From Candidatus Micrarchaeota archaeon (GTDB taxonomy: Archaea; Micrarchaeota; Micrarchaeia; Norongarragalinales; SBBD01): a stretch of 46,015 nucleotides of DNA. How positions within the stretch are numbered: position 1 is the stretch's first letter; each line of letters opens with the position of its first letter. Location: contig JBBSVW010000067.1 in NCBI GenBank assembly GCA_038046605.1, positions 1-46,015 on the forward strand, read 5' to 3'. Below the pieces are notes generated by a model. It worked only from the letters and a program-made list of their open reading frames with translations. It made no database searches and had not been told where the DNA came from. Below, piece after piece: positions 713 to 41,084 of the stretch. Made by a program: the position numbers and the translations under genes.

Positions 713-820
713 GTGGCATCAGAGTACACCAAGCTTATAGATAACCTTGCAAATCCGCAGGTGCAGCAGAAGGTTTCCGTGCCTAAAGTGCTGGGAAATC
801 AGCCGCCTTATTCGCTATAA
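713..820 (+). pseudogene. Orphan 5' fragment of the DUF4011 helicase gene (35-codon mini-ORF)
   Basis: GTG-started MASEYTKLIDNLANPQVQQKVSVPKVL-GNQPPYSL* versus the helicase start MASEYTTLIENLANPQIQEKVSVPKVL-EV. Bases 768-794 are identical to 2729-2755. Confidence 0.85.
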
Positions 821-967
821 TCAAGCTGCCTGAGCACTGCTGCAGCAACTTGCCTTGAAATCGGGCCAATATCCGCCTTGAGGGGGGTTTGCAGCGGCTA
901 TTTTGAAGAGTTTGCAAAACTCGTATATTTATACTTTTATATAGTTGAAATTATCATTTTAGATAAC

Positions 968-977
968 TTTATAAATA
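968..977 (+). promoter_or_regulatory. Archaeal TATA box of the abiE operon
   Basis: TTTATAAATA ~27 bp upstream of ATG 1004 with no SD, consistent with a leaderless transcript. Confidence 0.5.
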
Positions 978-1003
978 CAAAAGTAGAACTTACTGGGATT
1001 ATT

Positions 1004-1705
1004 ATGCGCTTTGAGCAATTTCGGGAGGTGTTGGAAAAGCAGCAAATAGTGGTTTTCAGTCTCAAGGATGCGTGCAGGATAATCGGGAAGCAGGAAGGAT
1101 ACGGCCGGCTTTTTTTGAGCAGGCTCGCTAGGCAGGGAAAGATAATCCGCATCGAGAGGGGGAAATATTGCCTTCCAGGAAAGGATGAATACGCGATAGC
1201 ATCCAACCTGGTTTTTCCTTCGTACATTTCCTTTTTTTCGGCGCTTGCGTTTCACCATCTTACCACGCAAATTCCGGTTGTGCTGCAAATCGCCTGCATG
1301 AAACAAAAGAAAACCATTTTTTTCAGGAATTTTCGCATCGAATTCATTAAGTTAAAGAAAAATGCATTTTTGGGTTTCCGGCGGTATGGCGATGCTTTCG
1401 TTGCAGAACCGGAGAAAGCCATAATCGATTCGCTTTACCTGCCTGAAAAAATACTAATCTCGGAAATTTACGCGGTATTGAAGCAAAATCCGCTTGATTT
1501 GCGAAAACTTAAGGATTATGCGGAAAGGATGGGTTCTTCGGTGCTTAAAAGGAGGCTGGGGCATTTGCTCGATATTAGCAGTTTAAAACAAAATACGGAT
1601 TTGGAGATGAAATCTACCCGTTATTTGCCCCTGAATCCCCTGTTGCCAATGCGCGGATTGAAGGCAAAGAAATGGATGCTTCTGATTAATGAGGTGCTGG
1701 CATGA
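1004..1705 (+). CDS. abiEi: Type IV TA antitoxin / transcriptional regulator, AbiEi family
   Basis: N-terminal wHTH (LSRLARQGKIIRIERGKY), PSYISFFSALAFHHLTTQIP and AEPEKAIIDSL motifs. ATGA overlap with the downstream toxin. ATG 1004 preferred over TTG 878. Confidence 0.85.
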   Translation: MRFEQFREVLEKQQIVVFSLKDACRIIGKQEGYGRLFLSRLARQGKIIRIERGKYCLPGKDEYAIASNLVFPSYISFFSALAFHHLTTQIPVVLQIACMKQKKTIFFRNFRIEFIKLKKNAFLGFRRYGDAFVAEPEKAIIDSLYLPEKILISEIYAVLKQNPLDLRKLKDYAERMGSSVLKRRLGHLLDISSLKQNTDLEMKSTRYLPLNPLLPMRGLKAKKWMLLINEVLA

Positions 1706-2472
1706 TCGATGGGAAAGAGTTAGCGTCAATGGCGATATCATTGGGGCTCAACAGCTATCAGGCGGAAAAGGATTACCTTCAGCACGCCTTTTTGGCATCG
1801 CTTTATGCCGTCTCTTCCAGCGAATTCATTTTCAAGGGCGGCACTGCGCTTCAGAAGGCCTATGCGCTCGATAGGTTTTCAGAGGACCTTGATTTCACCT
1901 TTTCCTCCCACAAGGAGCCTTCAGAAATAATCGAAAAGGCAGTCGCAGAGCTAGGCAAATTTGCCCTGTGCGCGATTAGTAAAAAAGAGCAAAAACCAAA
2001 TTCGATTTCCGCCAAATTGAAGGTAAACGGGCCTCTTTACCAAGGAAATGAAATAAGCGTTCAAACGATAGTGCTGGAAATCAGCATGAGGGAAGAAGTA
2101 TTGAGGAAAGCCCTTGCAGTTCGGATTGTGCCGCCCTACCTCGATTTGAGGCCTTATGTCGCATTATGCATGGATTTGAACGAGATGCTCGCGGAAAAAG
2201 TGAGGGCAATTATTGCGAGGGACAAGCCAAGGGATGTTTATGATGCGTGGTTCATGACAAAAAAGAACGCCAAATTCGATTTAGGGGAAATAAACCAAAA
2301 GCTCGGTTATTACGGTAAGAAATTCGAATTTTCCGAATTCAAGCAGGCAATCGCGCGGAAGGAGCGGATTTGGAAAACAGAGCTAAGCAAGCTGATGCGA
2401 AATCCGCCCGATTTCGATGAAGTTTCGGCCGGACTATTGCTATCAATCAAAGCGCAACTGGGTTCTGCTTAA
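1702..2472 (+). CDS. abiEii: Type IV TA toxin, AbiEii nucleotidyltransferase
   Basis: EKDY, FKGGTAL, RFSEDLDF and AEKVRAIIARDKPRDVYD motifs. Confidence 0.9.
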   Translation: MIDGKELASMAISLGLNSYQAEKDYLQHAFLASLYAVSSSEFIFKGGTALQKAYALDRFSEDLDFTFSSHKEPSEIIEKAVAELGKFALCAISKKEQKPNSISAKLKVNGPLYQGNEISVQTIVLEISMREEVLRKALAVRIVPPYLDLRPYVALCMDLNEMLAEKVRAIIARDKPRDVYDAWFMTKKNAKFDLGEINQKLGYYGKKFEFSEFKQAIARKERIWKTELSKLMRNPPDFDEVSAGLLLSIKAQLGSA

Positions 2473-2673
2473 CCATCTGATTGTTATCGTTATTGATAAC
2501 AAACCCCTCAAAAAGCCGCTTTTTACATAATGTGGAGCGGTAATTACTTTTGCTGAAAACAAAAAGTTACCACAATATGCTGGCGAACATTTATTGCCGC
2601 ACAATATTGATGACAATAAGCCCATTTCCAAATCCTTTATAATCTTTCACGCCTATCTTTGAAAGGGGAAAAT

Positions 2674-5600
2674 GTGGCATCCGAATATACAACACTTATT
2701 GAAAATTTAGCGAATCCGCAGATCCAGGAGAAGGTTTCCGTGCCTAAAGTGCTGGAGGTATTGCGTGACCAGCTGACGGATGTCAGCAAGAAGAACCGCT
2801 CCCTCCATCTGGCAAGGCTTAACATGAAGCTCCACTTCGACCTATTTGAGCTATTCGATGAAAACAAGGCGGAAGCAAAAAAACTGGCGGAAAAAATCAC
2901 CAATCAAAAGCCCCTGCGCCTCGTCAAAGTCATCACCCCAAAAGAAGATGAGATGGCTGCTAGCTATAGGTTGACTCACCTCCAGCGCGAGGCTGATTTC
3001 ATAGAAAAGGAAACCGGAAATTACGATGTTTTCATCGGCTATCCGTTCGTTGAAGGCAAATTCGGCGATGGCACCCATTTCAAATGCCCTCTTGTGCTAT
3101 TCCCGGTTTCAATTGAAAAGGATTATAAAAAGCTCGAATTTGCCGCAAAGCCCGATCTCGACCGCTTGCCCATCCTGAACAAGACCTTCATCATAGCCTA
3201 CCAGAAATTCAACCGCATTAAATTCGACCCGGAATACGATTTTGAAATAGAGGAAGGAAAGGAAGGCTTCATCGAATCCGCAATGGAAAAATGCGAGGGG
3301 CTTGGCATAAGGTTTGATGGAAAGCCCGTGCTAAAGGAAGGGATAATCCAATATGAAACAACAAAGGGCGGCAAGATGGACCCCGGCTCCAAAACTAAAC
3401 TTAGGAATTTTGCAGTCCTTGGCTTATTCCCCCAAACCTCCTCAACTTTGCTTTCCGATTATGAATCCCTCATTAAGGAATCCCCCAAATCGGGCCTTCT
3501 TTTTGATTTCTTCAATGGGGAGGCGCCCGATAAAAGCGAATGGTTAAAGCCCGACGACCAATTGAGGCGCACTTATGGCGTCACCTCCCTTGATGGATCA
3601 CAGGAGCGGGCCCTACTCTCATTGGAAAAGCTAGGCGGGATTGCAGTCCATGGCCCTCCCGGAACCGGTAAATCACAACTTATTGTGAATGTAATTGCAG
3701 ACAATGTCGCGAAGGGAAAGCGCGTCCTTCTGGTATGCGAAAAAAGGGCCGCCCTAGACGTAGTATACAACCGGCTATCCGCAATCGGCCTTGGCGACAT
3801 GGTTGCCCTTGTGCACGATTATGGCAAGGACCGCCGCTCAATCTACACCAAAGCCTCGCGCGTGATTGATAATTTCAACTCTTCAGAGGAGCTTCCACAA
3901 ATTTCAATTGACGACAAGGGCGAAAGGAGCGAGGAGCTGCTTGGGCAGATTGTTGCCTACCATCAGGCACTTAACACCAAATTATCCTCAGGCTCAACTC
4001 CAAAAGAACTCTACTCATTAGACAAGGATCCTCTTCTAGCGAGCATCGATTTGAATGGGCTAGAGGGCAAATTCTCATTGCAGCAGCTCCATGAGACCTT
4101 AGAAAAATTCTCCGAAATCCTCCCCATGATGAAGGTTTCCCAGAAAACCTCCTTCAAAACGATTTCGCAGGATAAGATTTCATCCCTAAGCGAGGAAAAA
4201 CTTAGGGAGGCGGAAATTCATTTGAGGGAGCTTTCCAGGATACATGAAACCCTCACCGAATTATTCCAATCCCCCTATTGGGCATCCCTTGCATTGGTGA
4301 AAAAAGGCACACCCTATCCCAAATCCCTCGTGCTGGAATCGCAAATCCTCTCGCTTCCGAAAAAATCAAAAGCGCTCCTCAAATTTGCAGATGCGAAATG
4401 GAGGGAATCCAAATCCTACATTGAAGCAATCAAAGGATCCCTCAAGGAGGAAAAATTTCCATTCGAGCTGATTCTCCGTGAGCTTTCAGGCGAGCAGCTC
4501 AAATTCCAAACCAAAACATATGGCGCGATCATCAAGCTTGGGGAGTACAACAAATTAATGCAGCGATTCCAGGCCGAAGCTTCTGCACTCGAATCCATCC
4601 TTGGCCTTGATTTTGCCTCCGATCTCACAAGGCAAGAATCAGTATCCTCAGAGACAGCCGGCGCAATAATGCTTCAGCTTGAAATGAATGTCAAGAACAA
4701 GGAAAAGAGCAAAATCGTCCAATCTCAGCTCGAGGACCTATCGGCAAATGAGAAAAAGCTCCTCGATATTGCGCTTGATGCCTTCGAAACTGAAAAAAGC
4801 GCAACCGGGGCGATATCCGCAATCCGGCACACTTTCTATTACAAATGGATTTTTTCCGCTGAAAACGATTTTCCGATCCTCAAAAAGCTAGACCGCAAAA
4901 CTTATGACCGCTATCGGAGGGAAGCCCAATCCCTGCTGGATAAGCGCAAGCACAAATCAAGGCAGGAGGTCCGCCGCGCATGGCATGAAAACATTTCCAA
5001 GCAAAAATACTCAAATCTTAAGGAGATGAAATTCCAATGCGAAAAGGACAAGCAGCCCTGGTCAATAAGGAAGTTCCTTCGCGAATTTGATTCAAAGGGC
5101 GCTTTTGACCTCTTTCCCGTATGGCTAGCTTCGCCTGAAACCGTCTCCTCCATTTTCCCACTTAAGCAGGGCTTATTCGATACGGTGATTTTTGATGAGG
5201 CCTCGCAATGCCCACTTGAGCATGCGATCCCATCCCTTTTCAGGGGAAAATCGGTCCTGGTTGCCGGCGATGAAAAGCAGCTCCCGCCATTTGATTTGTT
5301 CGAATCCTACCTTGATTCAGAGGATGGGGATGAGGATGATTCAAAAAGCGCATCGGAATTAAGGGAGGTTATGGGAATCAAAAGTTTCCTGCAACTCTCC
5401 AAACGCAGGTATCCCGAGCTCCTGCTTAATTGGCATTACCGATCCAGGCGAGAAGAATTGATCTCCTTCTCAAACTTCGCATTTTACGGCGGAAAGATCC
5501 ATACCATTGCATCTGCTGAGCATCCCAAGAAATCCCCTGCAATTGAATGGGTCAAGGTGGATGGTACATGGGATAAGAGGCGTAATCGTGCCGAGGCGCA

Positions 5601-6474
5601 GGCAATAGTCAATTTTGTTGCAAAAGAAATTGCAAAACCAAGCCCGCCATCAATTGGCATAGTCACATTCAATTCCGCCCAGCGCGACCTAATTGAAAAC
5701 CTCTTTGAAAAGCGTGCAATGGCGGATTACAAATTCTACATCAACTATAAGCGCGAAAAAGAGCGCGTGCAAAATGAGGAGATCCAATCCCTCTTCGTGA
5801 AAAACATTGAAAATGTGCAGGGGGATGAGCGCGACATGATCATTTTCTCAATTGGGTATGCTCCTTCAGCGGAAGATGGAAAAGTCCTCACGCAATTCGG
5901 GACGCTTTCAATGGAGGGCGGTGAAAACCGGCTAAATGTTGCAATCACGCGGGCAAGGGAGAAAATTTTCGTGTTTTCCTCCATTGAGCCACAACAGCTA
6001 AAAATCACCGATGAATCCAATGTCGGGGGCCAATTGCTTCGCAAATACCTCGAATACGCTAAATTCGTGTCCGAAGCAAACACCGAGCAAGTTTCCAGCA
6101 TCCTGCGCACTCTTGATCCCCAACTCTACGAAAAATCCCTCCAAAAGCAGCACACTCTAGCCGATTCGCTATCGCTTGCAATTTCCGAAAGCCTGCGCAA
6201 AACCGGCCTGGAGGTTACGGAAGGCATCGGACTATCAAACTATTCGCTTGACCTTGCCATCGTGGACAAGGATGACAAGCACCGTTTCTCCCTGGGCATA
6301 GAAATCGACAAGCATCCCTATTCCGGCCTTCTTGATGCAAAGGAGCGCGATGTCTACCGGCAGAACCTGCTTGAAAGCAAGGGCTGGAAGATCTACCGGA
6401 TCTCTCCGCGCGATTGGTGGAGCGATAGTGATGGCATCATCCGGGAGATAAAGCAGGAATTGAAATCCTCGTGA
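2674..6474 (+). CDS. DUF4011 + SF1 (Upf1-like) helicase + C-terminal Vsr/MTES_1575-like nuclease (Hhe-like defence protein)
   Basis: LTDVSKKNRSL and PLVLFPV (DUF4011-like); GPPGTGKS, EKRAALDVV, FDEASQ, GDEKQLPP, HYRSRREELISFSN, VQGDERD, NRLNVAITRAR; C-terminal GIEID...ERDVYRQNLLESKGWKIYRI. GTG 2674 follows an AGGGG SD-like motif. Confidence 0.85.
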   Translation: MASEYTTLIENLANPQIQEKVSVPKVLEVLRDQLTDVSKKNRSLHLARLNMKLHFDLFELFDENKAEAKKLAEKITNQKPLRLVKVITPKEDEMAASYRLTHLQREADFIEKETGNYDVFIGYPFVEGKFGDGTHFKCPLVLFPVSIEKDYKKLEFAAKPDLDRLPILNKTFIIAYQKFNRIKFDPEYDFEIEEGKEGFIESAMEKCEGLGIRFDGKPVLKEGIIQYETTKGGKMDPGSKTKLRNFAVLGLFPQTSSTLLSDYESLIKESPKSGLLFDFFNGEAPDKSEWLKPDDQLRRTYGVTSLDGSQERALLSLEKLGGIAVHGPPGTGKSQLIVNVIADNVAKGKRVLLVCEKRAALDVVYNRLSAIGLGDMVALVHDYGKDRRSIYTKASRVIDNFNSSEELPQISIDDKGERSEELLGQIVAYHQALNTKLSSGSTPKELYSLDKDPLLASIDLNGLEGKFSLQQLHETLEKFSEILPMMKVSQKTSFKTISQDKISSLSEEKLREAEIHLRELSRIHETLTELFQSPYWASLALVKKGTPYPKSLVLESQILSLPKKSKALLKFADAKWRESKSYIEAIKGSLKEEKFPFELILRELSGEQLKFQTKTYGAIIKLGEYNKLMQRFQAEASALESILGLDFASDLTRQESVSSETAGAIMLQLEMNVKNKEKSKIVQSQLEDLSANEKKLLDIALDAFETEKSATGAISAIRHTFYYKWIFSAENDFPILKKLDRKTYDRYRREAQSLLDKRKHKSRQEVRRAWHENISKQKYSNLKEMKFQCEKDKQPWSIRKFLREFDSKGAFDLFPVWLASPETVSSIFPLKQGLFDTVIFDEASQCPLEHAIPSLFRGKSVLVAGDEKQLPPFDLFESYLDSEDGDEDDSKSASELREVMGIKSFLQLSKRRYPELLLNWHYRSRREELISFSNFAFYGGKIHTIASAEHPKKSPAIEWVKVDGTWDKRRNRAEAQAIVNFVAKEIAKPSPPSIGIVTFNSAQRDLIENLFEKRAMADYKFYINYKREKERVQNEEIQSLFVKNIENVQGDERDMIIFSIGYAPSAEDGKVLTQFGTLSMEGGENRLNVAITRAREKIFVFSSIEPQQLKITDESNVGGQLLRKYLEYAKFVSEANTEQVSSILRTLDPQLYEKSLQKQHTLADSLSLAISESLRKTGLEVTEGIGLSNYSLDLAIVDKDDKHRFSLGIEIDKHPYSGLLDAKERDVYRQNLLESKGWKIYRISPRDWWSDSDGIIREIKQELKSS

Positions 6475-7070: not shown

Positions 7071-9302
7071 CTATCCATTCAAATTTCCAAGCTTCACTTG
7101 ATGGTATCCGATAGTCGCATCCGGATCCTTGAGGAGATTGCCCGTAAGTATGCAAACGATCTTTTCCCCTTCCTTAATGATTCCGGCCATAACCAGTTTT
7201 TTCACTCCTGCAATGGTTGCGGCGGAAGCCGGCTCGCAGCCAATCCCCGCGCCATCAATTACGGCCTTTGCATCCATTATCTCCCCATCCGTAACCTGCT
7301 CCACCACTCCGTTGGTGTACTCAATTGCCCGGATCGCTTTTGGCCAGCTAATGGGGTTTCCAATGCGGATTGCGGTTGCAATGGTTTCGGGTTTGGTTTC
7401 TGCAACAAGCGCTTTTCCCTTATTTTTCCACATTCTATAAAATGGCGCGGCTCCTTGAGCCTGCACAGATAGCAGCCGTGGGATCTTTTCAATCAATCCC
7501 AGATCCTTTGCCTCCCTTAGCGCTTTCCCAAAAGCCGATGTATTTCCCAAATTCCCAGCAGGAACTGCAATCCAATCCGGCGATTCCCAATCAAGCTGCA
7601 TTAGCATCTCGAAAATAATAGTTTTTTGCCCCTCGATTCTCCAGGGGTTGATTGAATTAAGAAGGTGCATCCCCCCCTCCTTGCTTTTCACCTGCACTTT
7701 TTCCATTGCCGAATCGAAATTACCCTTTATCTGCTCGATTTTGGCGCCATATGCCAGCGATTGCGATAGCTTTCCTGTTGCAATTTTGCCTTCAGGAATG
7801 AAAACCACGCTTTCAATTCCCCCAAGGGAGGCATATGCGGACATGGAGGCGGAGGTGTTTCCGGTTGAGGCGCAGGCAACCTTTTTTGCACCCACTTTTG
7901 CCGCCTGCGAAATGGCAACGGTCATTCCCCGATCCTTGAACGAACCGGTTGGGTTTTCCCCCTCATGCTTGAGCAGGATCCCCTTAATTCCGGCGTATTC
8001 ATCCACTTTTTTATGGGTGTAAAGGAAGGTATTTCCCTCATCCCTCGAGATGATGAATTTTTCCTCCAGGGATGGATGTATCAGCTCCTTGAAGCGCCAA
8101 ACCCCAGAACCAGTGCGTGATTCGAATAGTTTTTTTGAAATCCCCGCAATTTTTGAAAAATCATGCAAAATCTCAAGCAGCCCGCCGCATATTGGGCACC
8201 TGTTTGCATCCCCCATTTCGACATTCCTGCATTCGATGCATTGAACTTTTGAGATATTGTTATTTCCCGTCATTTTCACATTCCAATCCGATGATTCATC
8301 ATTTCCCATTATTTTCCCATTCCAATCCGATGAATTATTTCCTTTGGCATCAATGATTTCAGCGCCTTTAGGGGAAATTTGCGTCCAGATAAGCGAAACG
8401 GCAACCTTCTTGGATTTGAAATAGGCAGAAACATCCTTTTCCATCCGCCCCTTATTCGCATTATCCTTTTTGCATGCCGCAATAACAGCCGGCCCCGCCC
8501 CGCTGGCAAACACCCCAAAGCCGTATTTATCGCCAAGCGCTTGAATTGCCGGAAGATGATCAAGCGCCGGTACTTGGGCTCTGGCCTTTTCCACAATTTG
8601 GTCCTTTCCATGCACCGCCTCAATGAATTTTTCCGGATTCGACTCTATTGCTGATGCAAATAATGCCGATTGCGCCATCAAATTGCCCCTTGCCTTATTC
8701 CATTCCACCATTTCGGGTATTGCCCCCCGCATTTTTTTTGTGGAGCCTTTCTCCTTATCCGGAAGAACCACTAAAAGATCGAGTTCTATTGGCGGGAAAT
8801 TGACAAATCCAACCCCACTTGATGATTCTGATGAAAAAACAATCCCCCCCAAAATCCCAGGCGAGACATTATCCGTATGCGCAAAGCCCGCCGCGACTTT
8901 TTCCCCAAGGGCAGCGTAATCGATTAATTGCTTTTTGGTAAGCTGCAGCCCGTAAAGCGCATTCAAGGCAACTGCAGCGCCTACCGCAGTCGATGCGCTG
9001 CTTCCCAAACCGGATGCGGGCTTGATGTTTTTTACAATTGTGATTTTGAAGCCATTTAAAATCCCGTACTCCCTGCATATACTTTCAATCACCGGCCCCA
9101 AAGTGTTTTCAGGGGGGTTTTCCGGAACGGAGTATTTTCCCTCATTGGCAATTGTTGTCCCCCCTCCTTGCGCCACCTCGAATTCCATTACATCATATGG
9201 CTCAAGCAGTGCCATCCCGGCTACATCAAAGCCCGGCCCCAAATTGGCGGATGTTGCTAGGCACCTAACCTTGACTGATTTCAGAATTGCGTTCCTTGCC
9301 AT
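7071..9302 (-). CDS. thrBC: Fused homoserine kinase / threonine synthase (ThrB-ThrC)
   Basis: N-half GHMP kinase motifs (ATSANLGPGFD, PASGLGSSAS, HTDNVSP, SGAGP). C-half CxxC..CxxC, then ENPTGSFKDRG (PLP Lys), CASTGNTSAS and PAGNLGN. One uninterrupted frame; start ATG 9302 (alternative TTG 9323). Confidence 0.9.
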   Translation of the reverse strand: MARNAILKSVKVRCLATSANLGPGFDVAGMALLEPYDVMEFEVAQGGGTTIANEGKYSVPENPPENTLGPVIESICREYGILNGFKITIVKNIKPASGLGSSASTAVGAAVALNALYGLQLTKKQLIDYAALGEKVAAGFAHTDNVSPGILGGIVFSSESSSGVGFVNFPPIELDLLVVLPDKEKGSTKKMRGAIPEMVEWNKARGNLMAQSALFASAIESNPEKFIEAVHGKDQIVEKARAQVPALDHLPAIQALGDKYGFGVFASGAGPAVIAACKKDNANKGRMEKDVSAYFKSKKVAVSLIWTQISPKGAEIIDAKGNNSSDWNGKIMGNDESSDWNVKMTGNNNISKVQCIECRNVEMGDANRCPICGGLLEILHDFSKIAGISKKLFESRTGSGVWRFKELIHPSLEEKFIISRDEGNTFLYTHKKVDEYAGIKGILLKHEGENPTGSFKDRGMTVAISQAAKVGAKKVACASTGNTSASMSAYASLGGIESVVFIPEGKIATGKLSQSLAYGAKIEQIKGNFDSAMEKVQVKSKEGGMHLLNSINPWRIEGQKTIIFEMLMQLDWESPDWIAVPAGNLGNTSAFGKALREAKDLGLIEKIPRLLSVQAQGAAPFYRMWKNKGKALVAETKPETIATAIRIGNPISWPKAIRAIEYTNGVVEQVTDGEIMDAKAVIDGAGIGCEPASAATIAGVKKLVMAGIIKEGEKIVCILTGNLLKDPDATIGYHQVKLGNLNG
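8262..8339. repeat. 39-bp imperfect tandem duplication in the ThrB-ThrC linker
   Basis: Units 8262-8300 and 8301-8339 encode DESSDWNVKMTGN and NNSSDWNGKIMGN. Confidence 0.85.
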
Positions 9303-9323
9303 GTTGATCTTGCCTTTTCTCAA

Positions 9324-28020: not shown

Positions 28021-28150
28021 ATCCTATTTTTTCCCCTAGTGCCAAGATAAGTTGGCTTGGGAGAATTATGCTAGGCCATATTAATATTGCGCTGTGGGGG
28101 GCTTTTTTTGAATTCCCCCTTCCCCGATTATAAAAATAGTTGAAAAGCGC

Positions 28151-28224
28151 CTTGGCCGAGCAGGGGGGGGTTTCAAGCGAAGTGCCTTGGAAAAACCAAC
28201 TTTCAAGTGTTGCTAAACAGCTAC
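28151..28224 (+). repeat. Dispersed non-coding repeat, copy 1
   Basis: Aligns with 32324-32395 at about 58/74 positions (hand count). Confidence 0.8.
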
Positions 28225-28291
28225 TGATTTGTAGATGATCGATACCGACGAAGAATGATGCAAGGGTTAAAAAGCAAGAGAATTGTTTTTA

Positions 28292-30483: not shown

Positions 30484-30599
30484 TTATTTCCTCCTCCTCT
30501 TCAATTCCTCCAACACCATTTGCAGATCAATTCCCCTATTCTCCAGCCCAACCAGCGTGAAAAACAGCAGGTCAGCAGCTTCTCAAACGACCTCCTTAT
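30484..30599 (-). pseudogene. Orphan 3' fragment of hisIE
   Basis: KEVV*EAADLLFFTLVGLENRGIDLQMVLEELKRRRK*. 30491-30599 matches 34185-34293 at 96/109 nt; a Trp codon has become TGA. Confidence 0.9.
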
Positions 30600-32323: not shown

Positions 32324-32395
32324 CTTGGCCGAGCACGGGGGTCTGAAGCACAGCGCCTTGGAAAACCTGACTCTCAAGTGTTACCAGATAGCTAC
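32324..32395 (+). repeat. Dispersed non-coding repeat, copy 2
   Basis: Homologous to 28151-28224. Confidence 0.8.
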
Positions 32396-32468
32396 AAATT
32401 AGGAACAGATTGGTAACACGACTTTTTCACGGAATTTACCCATTCAATTAATAAATTTCAATTCCACA

Positions 32469-33152
32469 ATGAAAAGCATGGAATATTCTTATTACCGTGC
32501 ACCGAAATCCCATAAGCATCCGAAGGTCGTGCCGATTTTCGCTTTGGGGCACCATAAACCTATGGGCGAAGGGGAAGACGAGTTCACGAAAACAGTAATC
32601 AATTTTTACAAATACGGAAATAGGAAGGAAACGGAATATCTGATGCAGCGAACTTTGGAACTATTCGAAAAGCGGTTCAAGGGGGATCTGCAATACGATC
32701 TTGTCTGCATTATTCCAACCCATGCGGAGAAAGTGCTCAACCCCAATATGCTCAAATTTGCACAGGAATTTGCCGGGAAAGTTGGTATCAAATTCGACCA
32801 AGTGCTTGAACGGACTAGGACTATCAAAGGGCAGCACGAACAGGAGTCCATTGAGGCCAGAAAGGAAAACGTCAAGGACTCCTTGGCAATCAAAGGGGAT
32901 GTAAGAGGCAAGAGCATCCTCGTTTTCGACAATTACAGCATCAGCGGTTCTAATTGCATCGACGCGTTTGATACCCTTATCTCAGCCGGAGCTGCTAATG
33001 TCGTCTTCATCTGCTTTGGGGTCGGTTTCAAAGGCAAAGAGGGCGATTTTGACCTCAATCCGAATATGGGCAAAAAAGTATCCGAAATAATCAAGATGTT
33101 CCACTGGCCAAAGCTTTCCAAGGAGAAAATAGCAGAATTCAAGGCGAAGTGA
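32469..33152 (+). CDS. ComF-like phosphoribosyltransferase-fold protein
   Basis: IIPTH, LERTRTIKGQH...EARKENVKDS, GKSILVFDNYSISGSN (PRPP-loop position), LISAGAANV. Confidence 0.7.
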   Translation: MKSMEYSYYRAPKSHKHPKVVPIFALGHHKPMGEGEDEFTKTVINFYKYGNRKETEYLMQRTLELFEKRFKGDLQYDLVCIIPTHAEKVLNPNMLKFAQEFAGKVGIKFDQVLERTRTIKGQHEQESIEARKENVKDSLAIKGDVRGKSILVFDNYSISGSNCIDAFDTLISAGAANVVFICFGVGFKGKEGDFDLNPNMGKKVSEIIKMFHWPKLSKEKIAEFKAK

Positions 33153-33223
33153 GGCCTAGTAACGTTTAAATAGGTCCAATTAATGCATTATATTGTAAAA
33201 AATGCAATATAGTGGTTTTCAAA

Positions 33224-34162
33224 ATGAACGGACAGCTTACTGAAAAAGAGCTGGTAAATTGGCTTAAACTAACTAATATCAAATACTTGGGGCCACAAAA
33301 ATTACTTCGACTTTTCACTACTTACAAATCGATTGATGCGGTATTCTTGGCTTCGGATGAGGAGTTATTGGCTACCCGCATTTTCAATCATGCCATGCTT
33401 GAAGAATTAAAGCATCAGAAAGGCATTCCTGATGAACGATATAGCAAAGTAATTGATTTCTGCAAGGGCTGTGGAATCAAGCTTTTACCCCTCATTCAGG
33501 ACGACTATCCGCAACGATTGAAGAAGATCAGCAACCCTCCCCTAACCCTCTTCTTATGGGGAAATGAGGAATTGCTTAATTCGACTAAGACCTTCGCTAT
33601 TGTAGGCTCCCGTGAAGTAAGCGAAAAAGCAGTCGATTTCGCTTATTCTGCTGGTAAAGCACTTGCAGGAGAAGGCTATATCATCATTAGCGGAGGCGCC
33701 AAAGGAACAGATACCGCTGCTCATAAGGGCGCTTTGGCATCAAATGGCAAAACCATTGCAGTATTAGGTTCCGGCTTTTCAAACATGTATCCTGAAGAAA
33801 ACATTCCTCTTTTTGATCAAATAAGGAAAGATGGTGGCTTGCTGGTAAGTGAGCATTCTCCTAACTTTTCAGGTTCTAGGATCTCTTACTTACAAAGAAA
33901 CAGGATCACTTCTGCGCTATCCGACGGTTTGCTATTATGTGCCAACGAACGAAAAGACGGAGGGGCCATGACGCAAGTGAAATTGGCGCATTCTCAAGGA
34001 GTTCCGTTATTCTGCCCTGCTTTGATCCTGAACGTGTTGCCCAATGAAGGAATTGATGCGGTTATCCGTGACTTTAAGGCTAAAGAAATCAAAGGAGCAG
34101 ATGAAATCCTTGACATACTATCCAGAAAGAAGGATAAGATCACGCTGGAAGCTTTTGCTTAG
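33224..34162 (+). CDS. dprA: DprA/Smf family DNA-processing protein
   Basis: YPQRLKKISNPPLTLF, AIVGSRE, ISGGAKGTDTAAHKGAL, TIAVLGSG, QRNRITSALS. Confidence 0.9.
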   Translation: MNGQLTEKELVNWLKLTNIKYLGPQKLLRLFTTYKSIDAVFLASDEELLATRIFNHAMLEELKHQKGIPDERYSKVIDFCKGCGIKLLPLIQDDYPQRLKKISNPPLTLFLWGNEELLNSTKTFAIVGSREVSEKAVDFAYSAGKALAGEGYIIISGGAKGTDTAAHKGALASNGKTIAVLGSGFSNMYPEENIPLFDQIRKDGGLLVSEHSPNFSGSRISYLQRNRITSALSDGLLLCANERKDGGAMTQVKLAHSQGVPLFCPALILNVLPNEGIDAVIRDFKAKEIKGADEILDILSRKKDKITLEAFA

Positions 34163-34174
34163 TTTGCCTTTAGT

Positions 34175-34753
34175 TTAAATCTTACTCCTCCTCTTCAATT
34201 CCTCCAACACTTTTTGCAGATCGATCCCCCTATTCTCAAGCCCAACCAGTGTGAAAAACAACAGATCAGCCGTCTCCCAGACGACCTCCTTATCCTGCTT
34301 TTGCAATATCGCTTCTTCCAGTTCTCCCGCTTCCTCAATCAGTTTATCCCCGATTTCTTCCGGTTTATTGATAATCGATGAAACATATGATTTCTTCTTC
34401 GGATTTTTCTTCCGATCTTCAATAACTGCAATCAATTCTTCAAGTACGCCCCAACTTTTCTCCTTCTCTTTTCCAAAACAACTCCATTTTCCCGTGTGGC
34501 ATGCCCCATCTCCCATCTGTTCGACTCTTGCAAGTAGGGCATCCTTGTCGCAATCATATTTCAGGTCAACTATTTTCTGGAAATTGCCCGAGGATTCCCC
34601 TTTCTTCATCAATTTGCCGTACCTGCGGCTAAACCTCCAGACATAACCCGTCTTCTTCATCCTTGCGATTGCCTCTTTGTTGCAATAGAATAACGATAGC
34701 ACCTGCTTCGTCTCATAATCCTGCACAATAAGCGGAATCAATTTTTCTTTCAT
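34175..34753 (-). CDS. hisIE: Bifunctional phosphoribosyl-AMP cyclohydrolase / phosphoribosyl-ATP pyrophosphatase
   Basis: KGESSGNFQ, DCDKDALL, ACHTGKWSCF; KLIEEAGE, WETADLLF. Confidence 0.93.
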   Translation of the reverse strand: MKEKLIPLIVQDYETKQVLSLFYCNKEAIARMKKTGYVWRFSRRYGKLMKKGESSGNFQKIVDLKYDCDKDALLARVEQMGDGACHTGKWSCFGKEKEKSWGVLEELIAVIEDRKKNPKKKSYVSSIINKPEEIGDKLIEEAGELEEAILQKQDKEVVWETADLLFFTLVGLENRGIDLQKVLEELKRRSKI

Positions 34754-35512
34754 CTAACTCAACCTCACGTTTACTCCGTTTTTGTCCAAATATTCCTTAA
34801 CCTCTCGAATCGAAAGCTCCTTGTAGTGGAAAAGTCCGGCGGCCAAAGCAGCATCTGCCTTCCCTTTCTTGAAAACATCCGAAAAATCAGATAATTTGCC
34901 AGCTCCTCCGGAAGCAATAATCGGAATCCTTACTGTTTGAGCTACCTTCTTCGTCAATTCCAGATCAAATCCCGTTCTAGTGCCATCGGAATCGATGCTC
35001 GTAAGCAATATTTCCCCGGCTCCCCTTTCTTCGCACTCCTTTGCCCATTCAATTACATCCTTTCCGGTTGGTTTCTTCCCCCCATTTGAATAAACTTCCC
35101 AACTCCTTCCCTTCTTTTTGGCATCAATAGCAACAACTATGCATTGTGAGCCAAACATTTTGGAACCAGAATTTATCAAATCCGGATTTGCAATTGCCGC
35201 AGAATTGATCGCTACCTTGTCGGCTCCATTTTGGAGCACTTTTCTCATCTGATCAGAACTCGAAATTCCTCCTCCAACCGTAAACGGAATATTTATCCTT
35301 CTTGCAACATCCCTCATCCATCTGGAGTTTGTTTTCCTGTCCTGGTTTGTCGCCGTAATATCCAGAAATACCAGCTCATCTGCTCCTTCATTCGAGTAGA
35401 GCTCGGCTAACGCTGCGGGTTCTCCTGCATATTTGAGATTTTCAAACTTTGTTCCCTTCACTACCTTATTGTCCTTCACATCAAGGCAGGGGATTATCCT
35501 TTTACTTAACAT
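34754..35512 (-). CDS. hisF: Imidazole glycerol phosphate synthase, cyclase subunit
   Basis: [32 protein letters not shown]. Confidence 0.97.
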
Positions 35513-36218
35513 TTTTCATCATCTTTGTTAATTCCTTAACTGAAATCTTGTTTTCATAAATCGCTTTTCCAACAATTGCTCCATTAAAACCTATTTTCTT
35601 AAGTTGGACTACATCCTCAACAGAAGATATTCCTCCGCTGGCGATAATTGGCAGGTCGATTGCTGATTTTGCTTCCCTGAAAAAGTCCATTGAAGCTCCC
35701 TTAAGCATTCCATCGCCCGAAATATCCGTTAAAACGACTCCGCCAATTCCTAATCCGTCCAATTCAGAAAGAAAATCAATAACTTTCACCTCAGTTTTCT
35801 CTTTCCATCCTTTCGCATATACTATTCCGTCTTTCACGTCGCAAGCAACCCAAACCTTTTCTCCAAATTCCAAGGCAAAATCCCAAAGTTTTTCTAGATC
35901 CAGGGCTGTAGTACCGATTATTATCCTGTCAACTCCCGATGCAGATAATTTTTCTCCATCCTTAATCGTCCTTATACCTCCACCAACCTGAATTCTTCCT
36001 CCGGCCTGTTTGGCAATACCCTTAATCACCTCCAAATTATTCCCAGTCCCGAAAGCGGCATCCAAATCCACAATGTGCAGCCTATCTGCTTCTTCATTGA
36101 GGAACTTTTTCGCAATTTCAATCGGTTTATCCGAGTACACTTTAGCGCTTTCCCGCTTCCCTTGGGAAAGTCTTACCACTTTTCCTTCAAGCAAATCAAT
36201 CGCAGGTATGATTTCCAT
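35502..36218 (-). CDS. hisA: ProFAR isomerase
   Basis: IIPAIDL..GKVVRL.QG, LHIVDLDAA, QVGGGIR, TDISGDGML. Confidence 0.95.
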   Translation of the reverse strand: MEIIPAIDLLEGKVVRLSQGKRESAKVYSDKPIEIAKKFLNEEADRLHIVDLDAAFGTGNNLEVIKGIAKQAGGRIQVGGGIRTIKDGEKLSASGVDRIIIGTTALDLEKLWDFALEFGEKVWVACDVKDGIVYAKGWKEKTEVKVIDFLSELDGLGIGGVVLTDISGDGMLKGASMDFFREAKSAIDLPIIASGGISSVEDVVQLKKIGFNGAIVGKAIYENKISVKELTKMMKNVK

Positions 36219-36818
36219 TCAAATCAACTCAATGAAGTTTTTCAGAATCAATTCTCCAACCTTTCCGCTTTTTTCAGGGTGAAACTGGAGACCGTAGATA
36301 TTGGCATCTACAACACCGGCACAGAATTTCTCCCCATATTCGCTTTCCAGAAGTTTAATTTCAGAAACAAGTGGCCTTGGGTAATACGAGTGGACGAAAT
36401 ATACCGATGAATCGTTTGGGATTCCATTGAGAAGGGGGTTTAGCTTATTCCTTTTGATAGTATTCCATCCTATTTGAGGTACTTTATCCGCAAATCTAAA
36501 TTTCACAACCTTTCCGAGAAGGAAACTTAATCCCTTAACGCCAGGCGACTCCTCACTTTCCTCAAAAAGCACCTGCAATCCAAGGCAAATCCCTAAAATC
36601 GGCTTTCCGGATGTAACAAAATCCCCCAATTCCTTCTTTTTTACTTCGATTTTCTGCATGGCCGCTCCAAATGATCCAACTCCGGGAATTACTAGCGCAT
36701 CAAACTCTTGAAAATTGCCACCTTTAGTTATCACTGCTTCGGCTCCCTGCTTTTTCAGCGCAAAGGAGATGCTAAACAAATTCCCCATCCCGTAATTCAG
36801 GATTCCGATTTTCTTCAT
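36219..36818 (-). CDS. hisH: Imidazole glycerol phosphate synthase, glutaminase subunit
   Basis: YGMGNL, PGVGSF, LGICLGLQ, YFVHSY, QFHPEKS. ATG 36818 overlaps the hisB stop. Confidence 0.96.
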   Translation of the reverse strand: MKKIGILNYGMGNLFSISFALKKQGAEAVITKGGNFQEFDALVIPGVGSFGAAMQKIEVKKKELGDFVTSGKPILGICLGLQVLFEESEESPGVKGLSFLLGKVVKFRFADKVPQIGWNTIKRNKLNPLLNGIPNDSSVYFVHSYYPRPLVSEIKLLESEYGEKFCAGVVDANIYGLQFHPEKSGKVGELILKNFIELI

Positions 36819-37402
36819 AAAACTCCCTTTGTACTGGCTACCGCTCCGGCTAGCCGTTCGTCCATTTCGCAAGCAATCCTCATCGCTCTTCCGAAAGCTT
36901 TGAACAAAGCTTCCGCTTTGTGGTGTTCGTTTCTTCCGTACTCTAAGTTTAAGTGCAAATTCATTTGACAGTTCTGAGCGAAAGCTCCGAAGAAATCCTC
37001 AATCAACTCGGTTGGCAAATCTCCTATTTTCTCCCTCTCAAATTTCACGTTATAGACGAATGCATACCTGCCGCTGAGATCAACTGCAGCTGATGCTAGG
37101 GATTCGTCCATCGGCAAGAGAAAGAAACCGTATCTTCGAATTCCTTTCTTTTCCCCGAGTGCCTTCTTGAACGCACTACCTAGAACTATTCCAATATCCT
37201 CGGTCAAGTGGTGTTCGTCGACATTCAGATCTCCCATTGCTTCAACCTCCAAATCGAATAATCCTTGCTTTGCAAACAGCGAAAGCATGTGCTCCAGGAA
37301 GCCGATCCCGCAATTACCTGAATACTTTCCTGACCCATCGATATTCAACTTCACTTTCACTTCCGTTTCGTTTGTTTTCCTTTCAATTTCTGCGGTTCTC
37401 AT
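36815..37402 (-). CDS. hisB: Imidazoleglycerol-phosphate dehydratase (monofunctional)
   Basis: RKTNETEV, GFLEHML, DEHHLTEDIGI, NEHHKAEALFKA, STKGVL. Confidence 0.96.
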   Translation of the reverse strand: MRTAEIERKTNETEVKVKLNIDGSGKYSGNCGIGFLEHMLSLFAKQGLFDLEVEAMGDLNVDEHHLTEDIGIVLGSAFKKALGEKKGIRRYGFFLLPMDESLASAAVDLSGRYAFVYNVKFEREKIGDLPTELIEDFFGAFAQNCQMNLHLNLEYGRNEHHKAEALFKAFGRAMRIACEMDERLAGAVASTKGVL

Positions 37403-38127
37403 AAATTTCCCCTCTTTTCAGCCTCATCATTTACGATTTTCATCAATTTTCCGAAATCAGGTTCTGATTGAACATATTGTGGCTTGGCAAAACGGATCAA
37501 TTCGGCATTTTTCCGGACGACGATCCCAACTCCCCCTTTCTGGACCGCCTCACCGATAAAGTATTTGTCACTTTCAGAATCTCCGAAGGCGAATATGCAT
37601 GAATACGCAAATCCCCTCTTGGCAATTTGTCTTAATGCTATTAATTTCTTCTTCGATTCCATTACCGGGCCCTTGAAACCGACCATTTTTCTCCTCTCAA
37701 TTTTCAATTCCGTGCAAAAAATGTTATTTTCTGGAACGCCTAACCGCTTAGCTATCGATTCAGAAATGGGTCGATACTCCGAAGTAATAAAAAATACCTC
37801 AAATTGTCTGTTTTTCGTAAAATATTGGAAAAACTCTTTTGCACCTTTGGCTAAACGGGCACTTTCACCGATTTGTTCAAAAAACTCAACTGGAATCTCT
37901 CCCTTCTCATTGAGAATTTCCTTCAAAATCAGTTCGACATCAATTGAAGGGTAGATTTTGCTTCTTGGAATACCAAATTCCTTACTGATTCTTCCGGGAT
38001 TGCTTTTCACCCACTCGTAAATTTTCTCCGCTTCCTTTCTTTTTCCAAATACTTCGAAAAATTGGAATATCGCATCCTCCTTTGTTATGGTTTCGTCCAC
38101 ATCGAAAACCAATGCTATTTTTTCCAT
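37399..38127 (-). CDS. HAD-superfamily phosphatase, candidate histidinol-phosphate phosphatase
   Basis: FDVDET (motif I), ITS (II), K (III), GDSESD (IV). Overlaps both hisC and hisB. Confidence 0.7.
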   Translation of the reverse strand: MEKIALVFDVDETITKEDAIFQFFEVFGKRKEAEKIYEWVKSNPGRISKEFGIPRSKIYPSIDVELILKEILNEKGEIPVEFFEQIGESARLAKGAKEFFQYFTKNRQFEVFFITSEYRPISESIAKRLGVPENNIFCTELKIERRKMVGFKGPVMESKKKLIALRQIAKRGFAYSCIFAFGDSESDKYFIGEAVQKGGVGIVVRKNAELIRFAKPQYVQSEPDFGKLMKIVNDEAEKRGNL

Positions 38128-39179
38128 ATTCGGATTACCTCCCTTAGTGCTTTGATGAATCTCTCGTTCTCACTCTTTGTTCCAACCGTGACTCTGATGC
38201 AATTTTCCATTAACGAGAGTGAGGATCGGTCCCTTACGACAATTCCCTTTTCCGCAATTGCCTTCGAAACCAGCTTTGAATCGAATTCTTTCGGAATCCT
38301 GAAAACTGAAAAATTTGTTACTGTGGGGAAGACCTCCAAATTCGAATTTCTCAATTGCTTCTCCAGCCATTCCTTTTCCAGCATCATTTCATTAACCCAA
38401 TTTTCCATCCGGGCCTTGTTTTCCAGCGCTTTCAAAGCCAGATAGTTGGGAATCGCTCCCACATTGTAAGGCGCCTTGATTTTCCGCAAATTTTCGATGA
38501 TTTTCTTGTTCGCAATGGCATAACCGACTCGCAAGGCAGCCAGCCCCCAGGCTTTTGAAAGTGTTTTGCTTACGATCAGGTTTTCATATTCCAAAACCAG
38601 CGGAGCAAGCGTCTTTCCTGCGAATTCCCCATACGCTTCATCGACGAAAACAACGCAATTTGCCTTTTCTGCTATTTCCTTAATCCTTTCAAGCTCAACG
38701 ACATTCCCAAGAGGTGAATTTGGCGAAATAATCACTATCATTTTCGTATTTTCATCGATTTTGGCAAGAACTTTATCGACATTCGGCTGGAAATCATCCT
38801 CCACAAGAACCGCTCTAATCTTAACTCCCGATATTTCAGCGCAGACATTGAACATTGAATAGCCGGGCTCCACTGTAATGATGTTATCCCCTTTCTCAGC
38901 GAATGTTCGGATCGCCAGGTCAATAATCTCGTCCGATCCGTTACCAACCATAACGTTCTCAGAAGTTAGCCCTCCTCCCACATACTCTGCCAATTTACCT
39001 CGCAATTCAAGCAGATCCGAATCAGGATAGCGGTTTAGGTCCACTCCTTCAAACTGGGCGGTGCTGCCGAATGCATTTTCATTCGCATCCATGAAAATCT
39101 CCGCTTTTTTATATAAGTCGCGGGCACAAACGTATGGCGAAAGCCGCCTAACTGTTTCCCTTGCTTTAATTTTTCTCAT
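38115..39179 (-). CDS. hisC: Histidinol-phosphate aminotransferase
   Basis: DANEN, NRYPD, GNGSDEII, VDEAYGEF, KTLSKAWGLAALRVGY. Confidence 0.95.
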   Translation of the reverse strand: MRKIKARETVRRLSPYVCARDLYKKAEIFMDANENAFGSTAQFEGVDLNRYPDSDLLELRGKLAEYVGGGLTSENVMVGNGSDEIIDLAIRTFAEKGDNIITVEPGYSMFNVCAEISGVKIRAVLVEDDFQPNVDKVLAKIDENTKMIVIISPNSPLGNVVELERIKEIAEKANCVVFVDEAYGEFAGKTLAPLVLEYENLIVSKTLSKAWGLAALRVGYAIANKKIIENLRKIKAPYNVGAIPNYLALKALENKARMENWVNEMMLEKEWLEKQLRNSNLEVFPTVTNFSVFRIPKEFDSKLVSKAIAEKGIVVRDRSSLSLMENCIRVTVGTKSENERFIKALREVIRIWKK

Positions 39180-41084
39180 ATTTCTCCCTCCAATCTCCTC
39201 CTTACCGAATTAGCGTGTGCTTCAAGCCCCTCAGCTTCTGCTACCGCTACAATAGCATCCGAAATATTCTCCAAACCCTTTTGCTCCAATTTCAGGAAGT
39301 TCATTTCCCGAACAAAATCCTTAGCTGAAAGCCCGGAATAGCTCCTTGCAAACCCTCCGGTAGGCAAAATGTGATTGGGCCCGGCTCCATAATCCCCAGC
39401 TGCTTCGCAGGAGTAGTTGCCTATGAAAATCGCTCCCGCAGTTGTGACGCTTTTCATCCACGCAAAGGGCCTTTCAATAACCAGCTCTAAGTGCTCGGGA
39501 GCATACTTGTTGGCAAAATCGATTGCTTGCTGGATGTTTCTTGCCAACAATAAAGCTCCATTATTCTCAAACGCTTTCTTGACAATCTGCTTTCTTGGAA
39601 GCATTATCGCTTGCTTTTTGATCTCCTCAATAGTGTTTTTGATTATCACCTCGCTTGTGGAAACCAAAATCGGACAGGCATTCGCATCGTGTTCAGCCTG
39701 CGCCAGCAAATCCGCAGCAATAAACCTCGGATTTGCAGTTTCATCCGCAATAATCATCACTTCCGATGGTCCAGCAGGCGAATCAATTGCAATTCCGTAG
39801 CTTTGGGCTTCCAGTTTGGCTGCCGCCACATAAGCATTTCCGGGTCCCACGATTTTATTGACCCTTGGCACTTTGTACGTTCCAAAACCCATTGCAGCAA
39901 TTGCCTGAGCTCCTCCCAACCTGAAAACCCGATCCGCTCCGGCAATATCCGCAGCCACCAGAATCGCAGGATTGCATTCTTTTAGTGAATTGCAGGGAGA
40001 ACATAGTATTACCTCCCCTACACCCGCTACTTTTGCAGGTACGATCCCCATCAAAACCGAAGAAGGATAAGCGGCAGTTCCTCCAGGGGCATAAACCCCA
40101 ACCCGTTCAAGCGGCCTTATTTCCTTTCCCATGCTTCCCCCATCGACTTTCATCTCCCATCTTTGCGGAAGCTCCCTTTTGCTGAACTCCTCGATATTCC
40201 GTTTCATCAATTTTAGGGAATCGATCAGTTTCTGTGGCACTTTGGCATAGGCGGCCATTATTTCCTCTCTGGAAACCTCGGATTCCGATGGTTTCAACTC
40301 AACCTTATCATAACGCAGCTGGTATTCGGCAACCGCCTCATCCTTTCTCTTGAGCACGTTTTCAAATACCTGGCGAACGGTTTGCTTTATCTCCGGAGAA
40401 CGCTCCTTTCCCCTGAAAAAGAAACGTTTCAACTCTGTATCTGAAAGCTCCTCCAGCTTCCTTACTTCGAATTTCCAATCGTTTTGGATTTTTGAAACCA
40501 ATTCCGCAACTTGGAAGCCTTTTGTGACTACCAACCCCTTATTGGCAATTAAAATCGCACTTGTTTCCAGAATTTCCTCTTTTATGATGAGCCCATTCTC
40601 CCTCAATGTTTTACCCGTTGCAGTCAGGTCGATAACCGCGTCCGCGATCCCTGCATTGACGCTGGCTTCAACTGCCCCATCCAAGATTACCAGTTCGGCG
40701 TCAATTCCTTTGCTGATTAGATATTTTCTGGCGATATTCGGGAAAGAGGTGGCTACTCTATTGATTTTCTTCCCGTTTTGCTCTGGGGCCGCATAAACTA
40801 AAGTGCATCCTCCAAAAGGCAAGTCCAAAATAAGTTCACAATCGCTTTCCTTTTCCGTTATGATGTCTTTTCCGGTAATGCCAACATCCGCTAGACCCGA
40901 AGAAACATAGTTAGGGATATCCCTAGCTCTTGCAAATAGTACTTTGATTTCAGAATCTTCAGAATTAGTGAAATAGGCGCGGTCGGATCCGTTAAGTGTT
41001 ATCCCTAGTGCAGCTAAAAGCTTCCTTGAAGGCGCACTCAAAGCGCCCTTGTTTGGTATTGCCAATGTGAAGAGAACCGCCCAT
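39176..41084 (-). CDS. hisGD: Fused short-form ATP phosphoribosyltransferase / histidinol dehydrogenase (HisG-HisD); start codon out of frame
   Basis: AIPNKG, RARDIP, DVGITGKD, ATSFPNI, GAVEA, TGKTLRENGL (HisG); GVYAPGG, GGAQAIAA, GPGNAYV, PAGPSE, AQAEH, YAPEHL, GPNHILPT (HisD). The main frame is closed upstream by TAA at 41092-41090 and has only TTG 41065; the SD-led ATG 41084 is one base out of frame. Confidence 0.9.

Follow-up and report, generated by a model that had tools for sequence, protein, structure and literature searches.

An AbiE toxin-antitoxin cassette between two versions of a helicase gene start in a Micrarchaeota archaeon, probably captured without an integrase

The left part of contig JBBSVW010000067.1 from a Candidatus Micrarchaeota archaeon (assembly GCA_038046605.1) raises the question of how an AbiE toxin-antitoxin pair came to lie between two versions of the 5' end of a helicase gene while the helicase gene itself was left whole. 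The stretch analysed, referred to as the window, is 46,015 nucleotides long and forms the start of contig C67 of the source genome, G000 (1.64 Mb, 106 contigs, 90.7% complete). Compared genomes are numbered G0xx, compared loci carry L-numbers, sequencing runs X-numbers, and contigs of G000 C-numbers. The answer favoured here, which is probable with considerable room for doubt, is that DNA of a relative was captured without an integrase, through one homologous and one illegitimate joint, and was retained by toxin-antitoxin addiction. Support comes from the layout of the locus, the empty sites of relatives, the recurrence of the layout at many unrelated gene ends, and a truncated element at the junction.

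The inserted unit is 1961 bp long, is bounded by direct repeats of more than 30 bp, and contains no gene of at least 130 aa besides abiEi and abiEii. To its left lies a stranded 5' stub (713-794; features are on the forward strand unless noted) of 27 helicase codons without a stop or frameshift, in a frame that remains open until the stop at 818-820. Translation confirmed the proposal of the initial annotation that these are the first codons of the helicase gene that starts again at 2674, and the two stretches described there as identical, 768-794 and 2729-2755, match at 27/27 positions. Before this core the copies had been described as differing mostly at synonymous positions, which holds: the 15 differences in 713-767 fall at 11 third, three first, and one second codon positions, such that eight codons differ synonymously and four by amino acid. 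The duplicated 5' end is therefore real, but it is longer than was claimed, at about 130 bp including the promoter. The full repeat (663-794 versus 2631-2755; 132 columns, 74% identity) covers a TATA-like box and a ribosome site (663-712 versus 2631-2673). The promoter and ribosome site of the left copy (663-712), in what is taken to be the resident position, resemble the single start region of G005 and G001, with 77-81% identity between 663/667-797 and the lone helicase start regions of these genomes. The replacement promoter and first 18 codons of the right copy (2631-2728) diverge from G001 and G005 to excess and probably derive from a related donor lineage. When 794 is joined to 2756 in silico, an open frame of 1266 aa results, as expected from the earlier suggestion that removal between the repeats restores a full gene. 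Searches of 795-1003 by DNA profile, protein profile, and shuffled local alignment found no remnant of further helicase sequence. After the core come the letters GAAATC, which may represent either a further two helicase codons plus an additional G or a piece of the miniature element described below. No hairpin was detected at the left junction (z +0.9 and -0.3).

The helicase gene is present in 10 of 60 relatives (6/6 in the genus, 9/10 in the family, and one outside the family), and in all ten, which are other species, the gene has a single start and the site is empty. Neither a second helicase start nor DNA resembling this abiE pair occurs at any of the ten loci, and a genome-wide DNA search of ten family relatives gave one copy in each of the three that matched. 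Together with the layout, these empty sites uphold the view that an AbiE unit bringing its own promoter and 5' end was inserted and left the helicase gene whole; the expectation of alternative cargo at this site found no counterpart among the ten relatives. The possibility of an assembly chimera, in which two strains were joined at the shared 27 bp, was addressed with read-derived contigs from four of the seven listed runs, where X1 and X2 belong to one study, which may be the source of the assembly, and X4 to a second. Contigs span the left junction in X1 (24-1030), X2 (143-1641), and X4 (731-887, with five other letters and 16 letters unplaced), and the right junction in X1 (1666-3209) and X2 (2395-3013). 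A chimera would suit a short-read assembly with a depth of about 6-9 and variant abiE contigs in the same runs, but with at least 64 letters on each side of the left junction in three runs of two studies, the right junction bridged in two runs, and the same layout in a single-contig chromosome record (L218), it is barely credible. The search for an empty site was thus successful in other species, but no 794-2756 joint or circular joint was found among contigs of the four runs, where the depth is 2-9 and the absence of a contig carries no weight. Active excision was likewise not seen in these low-depth contigs, and this absence is uninformative.

The comparison with relatives also bears on which of the two copies is resident. 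Where G001 and G005 agree, the left copy differs from them at 5/43 positions and the right copy at 9/43 (one-sided p 0.04 versus the gene body), while the gene-wide value is 315/2871 (11%). At three of the four amino-acid differences the stub matches the residue of the relatives and the working copy has a private residue; the fourth is mixed. The right copy has its excess of private changes only up to 2728. In G001 and G005 a different surface-type gene sits immediately 5' of the helicase gene, as one sits 5' of the stub here, where the left neighbour is the 3' part of a PEGA-domain surface protein gene (1-645; PF08308). Results from these comparisons point weakly to a resident stub and a foreign right head, and the donor origin of that head is weakly indicated. 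An alternative is an exact long target duplication within this lineage, after which the copies drifted apart. Some sister repeats described below are near perfect (L204, 99%; L231, 98%), as in the classical cases in the survey of Furuta, Abe, and Kobayashi (2010, PMC2853133), and a private base shared by both copies would fit common descent. However, a dead stub should collect amino-acid changes, and three of the four lie in the working copy; the stub, moreover, differs from relatives at the gene-wide rate (5/43 versus 11%). Decay of a local duplicate fits the data worse, and exact duplication is distinctly unlikely. The third-position differences and the undecayed stub support capture from a relative.

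The role of the 27-bp core was of particular concern, as the initial annotation had made it the site of recombination. As suggested there, other copies were sought in the genome; with as many as six mismatches allowed, G000 contains the core nowhere else. Of 3802 windows, it is the 24th most conserved when four relatives are compared and the 384th with six; G001 matches it at 26/27 bases, and G002 and G005 are identical across it (27/27) although they are only 64% alike across the gene. Of 21 orthologue pairs, one is identical across the core. The perfect match is consequently weak evidence for an attachment (att) site, because few stretches of the gene are as well conserved, and the view of a special recombination site was not supported: the stretch is conserved anyway, and sister cassettes lack a common core. 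Both copies carry a wobble T (784/2745) that is found in 0/6 relatives; this base and the end of divergence at 2728 would fit a crossover or conversion tract within the core, for which a site-specific enzyme is unnecessary. In metagenome contigs the core pattern was found at four loci (this contig twice, a G005-like empty site once, and one chance match), and in viral contigs it was found at none. A reading of 791-820 as an integron attC or dif-like site was dropped, as the motif is the end of a dispersed element.

A site-specific origin would make the unit a relic akin to a cis-mobilisable element, with the 27 bp as att core, a tyrosine recombinase acting in trans, and a replacement 5' end carried by the unit, as is usual for integrative elements. 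Such a relic would account for a perfect run located exactly at the inner end of the stub, for the shared private wobble base, and for right-copy divergence that stops at this point. Furthermore, tyrosine recombinase genes (PF00589) occur in 9/10 family relatives, and one archaeal integrase recombines with low sequence specificity (PMC8371274). The unit, however, contains no integrase or transposase gene, as originally stated, only a 16-bp element end, and the recommended recombinase search detected no PF00589, PF00239, or PF07508 protein in the 90.7% complete G000 assembly. Neither Cas1 (PF01867) in G000 nor a casposase in the unit was found, which sets the locus apart from casposons. In addition, the core is conserved regardless of any att function, and across the 24 repeat pairs compared the longest run differs from one to the next, as does its position. 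No second element that might be a parent with a shared att site, no other cargo in ten relatives, no viral contig with the core pattern, and no motif common to sister cassettes was found. A site-specific relic is therefore considered unlikely.

The left junction holds a further clue. Ten bases past the core begins the cut-off end (805-820) of a 93-bp IS630-type miniature repeat, with its outer end toward abiE and its cut interior toward the stub. Its exact 15 letters end 16 other places in G000, full copies start and finish with TATA (12 checked), and copies also occur in G005 (L294) and G010 (L300-L308). The truncation inside the element, with the outer end facing abiE, indicates that the left boundary is a non-homologous joint or a later deletion. 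It could instead be supposed that an IS630-type transposase moved the cassette or cut the stub via this end, which lies 10 bp from the left core. G000 encodes an IS630 transposase, on an element (C73:21488-22562, L324) with the same terminal 11 letters; on C86 a pair of miniature-element copies encloses cargo, and another copy is found at the edge of the C69 cassette. The orientation here is nevertheless the reverse of a composite transposon, of which only one end is present, with its outer side facing the cargo; no partner end was found at 2470-2665, and the element profile is unmatched in the other archaeal AbiE loci searched. Movement by an IS630-type transposase is thus highly improbable. 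The intact 93-bp element is intergenic (for example, C10:13374-13466) and has imperfect terminal inverted repeats and two hairpins, with a nested hairpin insert in some copies; it may resemble Correia-type elements in kind. The C86 repeat pair had been a candidate gene end and was rejected, as it consists of two copies of this element.

Under integrase-free capture, the 1961-bp unit would be a passive AbiE cassette from a related archaeon that was originally located upstream of the donor's helicase gene. Together with abiEi-abiEii, the incoming piece would have carried one end of an IS630-type miniature element and, from the donor helicase gene, the promoter and first codons. RadA, for which G000 encodes a RadA-like gene, may have paired the donor and resident helicase heads, most easily in the conserved 27 bp, while at the other end the joint would have formed within the miniature element and independently of homology. 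The simplest route would be circularisation of the fragment followed by one crossover, and a linear homology-facilitated illegitimate event would give the same layout. In Escherichia coli, single crossovers of re-circularised DNA gave partial-gene duplications in 56/60 clones, with duplications of 109-950 bp in 14 sequenced clones (PMC3240628); a linear version was proposed for Vibrio effector arrays (PMC5361080). After the event the resident start would remain as a stub, and the donor start would drive the intact gene. Addiction to AbiE would presumably disfavour loss through recombination between the repeats. AbiE stabilised a plasmid in the work of Dy et al. (2014, PMC3985639), which would explain survival of the cassette.

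The same layout recurs elsewhere. A self-search of G000 gave 91 direct-repeat pairs. Of these, 29 were examined, and in several a stranded gene end and its partner enclose accessory genes: AbiE at the end of a TGS-GTPase gene (C58), two AbiE pairs and an ATPase at the end of an NAD(P)HX dehydratase gene (C69), ParE at the end of an Nre gene (C31), a small pair without Pfam match at the end of a hydrogenase gene (C42), and a helix-turn-helix (HTH) pair at a gene end on C79. Outside G000, the single-contig chromosome record L218 has a 5' stub and second start of a CYTH gene around AbiE in the same form. Inspection of 24 repeat pairs revealed no common core, and their longest identical runs are terminal in some and central in others. 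A flank test, in which a direct repeat had to lie within 1.5 kb on both sides, was applied to the 604 mid-sized open reading frames of G000 with full flanks. Sixteen were flanked, including 4/6 AbiEii genes versus 12/598 others (p 5e-6, or 1e-4 when the C69 pair is counted once); a seventh AbiEii gene has a short flank and no repeat. In the order, 7/29 AbiEii loci are flanked, six of them clearly at gene or tRNA ends, versus 0/29 Toprim loci (one dropped), a weak control because the Toprim flanks mostly lie inside one long gene. Among 80 named AbiEii loci, 54 had full flanks and were assigned to groups by hand from record titles. Archaeal loci are flanked in 13/40 cases (11 clear) versus 5/67 side segments (p 0.001, and 0.01 for the 11), and DPANN loci in 8/21 versus 2/38 side segments; for bacterial loci the count is 1/14 (archaea versus bacteria, p 0.08). 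These results suggest that toxin-antitoxin pairs are the usual survivors among repeat-flanked inserts.

The hydrogenase 3' end is present four times at C42:3878-5168 (L088): two of the copies follow a hairpin repeat and one follows the small gene pair, so that hairpin and gene inserts use one site. One and the same pilin gene end is duplicated in both G000 (C100:14756-15664) and G001 (L162:4128-5764), with a different insert in each (AbiE in G001).

The window itself contains a second instance, at the 3' end of hisIE. A stranded copy on the reverse strand (30488-30599; 112 bp, 88% identity to its partner at 34182-34293) encloses, with that partner, an HTH and nucleotidyltransferase pair and a ShosTA-like pair. 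The latter (32469-34162) consists of phosphoribosyltransferase-like and DprA-like genes that match ShosT/ShosA and PsyrT/PsyrA profiles, here in an archaeon; the DprA-like gene was rejected as a sign of competence, as it pairs with the ShosT-like gene. A complete-looking histidine operon follows (34175-41065), and hisF was found in 0/6 genus relatives and in 2/4 other family genomes. In G002-G005, five places carry a hisIE 3' stub, most of them in a different genomic context and next to different accessory genes (relatives' stub loci L133-L137 and L154-L158). Full hisIE was found in 0/5 and hisF in 0/6 of the genus relatives, which are 84-91% complete. Stubs in genomes without detected hisIE thus either outlive their gene or travel with the cargo. 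A dispersed repeat of 75-95 bp without Rfam match (28148-28237 and 32324-32418, and C77:4397 and 8988) also lies near the hisIE stubs of G002-G005.

Several observations weigh against capture as described above. A donor with AbiE before the helicase gene was found neither among relatives nor in metagenome contigs, and no ComEC was found in the five genomes searched, which leaves the uptake route without a candidate. The tyrosine recombinases of family relatives, noted above, would favour an enzyme-mediated event. In a direct left-right comparison, eight versus three coding sites favour the left copy, which is not significant (p 0.23), and the whole repeat including the promoter is even across five relatives (13 versus 15); because these direct comparisons are not significant or even, a resident stub and foreign head are only weakly favoured. 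At C58 and C69 it is the stubs that have decayed, and the gene copy there is the one that resembles relatives. The hisIE stubs of four relatives without detected hisIE or hisF imply that a stub need not be the resident's own end. Finally, the controls in the flank counts are not matched accessory genes, and kin within those counts are not independent.

By sequence the cargo is an intact-looking AbiE type IV pair, in which a winged helix-turn-helix antitoxin gene, abiEi, directly adjoins a DUF1814 gene, abiEii. The product of abiEi (1004-1705) has 233 aa and matches PF13338 (E 1e-8) and the PADLOC AbiEi profile (E 4e-45); the nucleotidyltransferase toxin AbiEii (1702-2472, 256 aa) matches PF08843 (E 1e-29) and PADLOC AbiEii, and contains motifs I-IV, which were required for toxicity in the AbiE system of Dy et al. 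(PMC3985639). Residues G46, G47, R58, D62, D64, K166, R173, and D181 are invariant across eight homologues. The abiE promoter region (924-988) contains an imperfect inverted repeat (924-979; 20-bp arms with six mismatches, found with no shuffle control) that is conserved before abiE in G039, G008, and G003 and is likely an AbiEi operator. The GC content at third codon positions of abiEi and abiEii lies at the 42nd and 50th percentile, and composition therefore gives no foreign signal. The nearest named AbiEii, from a Norongarragalinales record, is 60% identical, and 31 viral AbiEii loci share 25-33% identity over most of the length. In X1 and X2 a second abiE variant is about 90% alike (window 846, 1642-1860), and one X2 contig matches the abiE region from 846 onward with another left flank. 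At 1736 and 1738 every covering contig reads A where the window has T, and at 1710 three runs read G.

The target gene (2674-6474, 1266 aa) encodes a protein with DUF4011, SF1 helicase, and MTES_1575 nuclease domains, identified by profile matches. It is Hhe/ProA-like in domain order and scores below the NCBIfam equivalog cut-offs (Hhe, 389 of 2000 bits; ProA, 604 of 1500). The presence of this helicase-nuclease in 9/10 family genomes is unusually steady for a defence gene. Elsewhere in the window, 7071-9323 encodes a homoserine kinase (GHMP) fused to a threonine synthase (PALP); the linker contains a short internal repeat (8262-8338). No known RNA families of the Rfam type matched in the window, and ARAGORN found only seven tRNA genes in the 106 contigs of G000, which suggests many intron-bearing or unassembled tRNAs.

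Taken singly the locus is otherwise ordinary; its interest lies in what the recurrence may mean. It is possible, although on present evidence doubtful, that small archaea spread toxin-antitoxin pairs as recombinase-free "gene-end cassettes". Each pair would carry a functional copy of the end of a core gene and exchange it for the resident end, and the stubs left behind would act as homology arms that can be used again and pass from species to species, including into genomes that lack the gene (hisIE stubs in G002-G005). If this is true, such cassettes would be a standing mobility route that accounts for about a third of sampled archaeal AbiE loci rather than one-off scars, and would bear on the acquisition of defence genes by ultra-small archaea, which have few mobile elements. 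The mechanism of long target duplications has been without experimental proof since 2010 (PMC2853133). At least seven such cassettes, at different gene ends, are present in G000, and related genomes allow comparison, so that two ideas become testable: that the copies come from different lineages, and that addiction prevents the drop-out of repeat-flanked inserts.

Comparison with known systems places the locus among several precedents. The AbiE type IV system of PMC3985639 has the same abiEi-abiEii operon and motifs I-IV, and its promoter inverted repeat has a possible counterpart here in the imperfect repeat at 924-979; the present pair, a predicted toxin and antitoxin, occupies a 2-kb islet instead of a plasmid or conjugative element. 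Cis-mobilisable elements and elements integrated in protein-coding genes (PMC5704250, PMC6563490) share an integrase-free unit between direct repeats and a restored target. Those elements keep the attL and attR of a site-specific recombinase, and their thaumarchaeal examples sit at 3' gene ends; neither a common site nor a parent element was found here. Homology-facilitated illegitimate recombination and single-crossover capture (PMC3240628, PMC5361080) have the same combination of one homologous and one illegitimate joint, the same duplications of about 100 bp or more from re-circularised DNA, and displaced ends that persist as orphans; they were demonstrated or proposed in bacteria with known uptake routes, whereas here no ComEC was found and the anchor would be about 130 bp at 74-80% identity. 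No title or abstract was found that describes toxin-antitoxin or DPANN cases of this layout, in a literature search that covered subscription journals thinly. The closest precedent, insertion with long target duplication, comes from bacterial restriction genes, where the duplication frequently spans a start or stop codon (PMC2853133). Shared with it are addictive defence genes, the lack of a mobility gene, a gene kept whole, direct repeats of more than 30 bp, an insert below 20 kb, and an empty site in relatives. The present cargo differs in being AbiE or other toxin-antitoxin pairs in place of restriction-modification genes; the host is an archaeon, and no archaeal case survived the selection of that survey; and the copies are 74% alike with third-position differences, versus at least 90% in the table rows compared. 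The locus is accordingly viewed as a variant of insertion with long target duplication; what is new is the AbiE enrichment among archaeal loci, along with the possibly travelling stubs.

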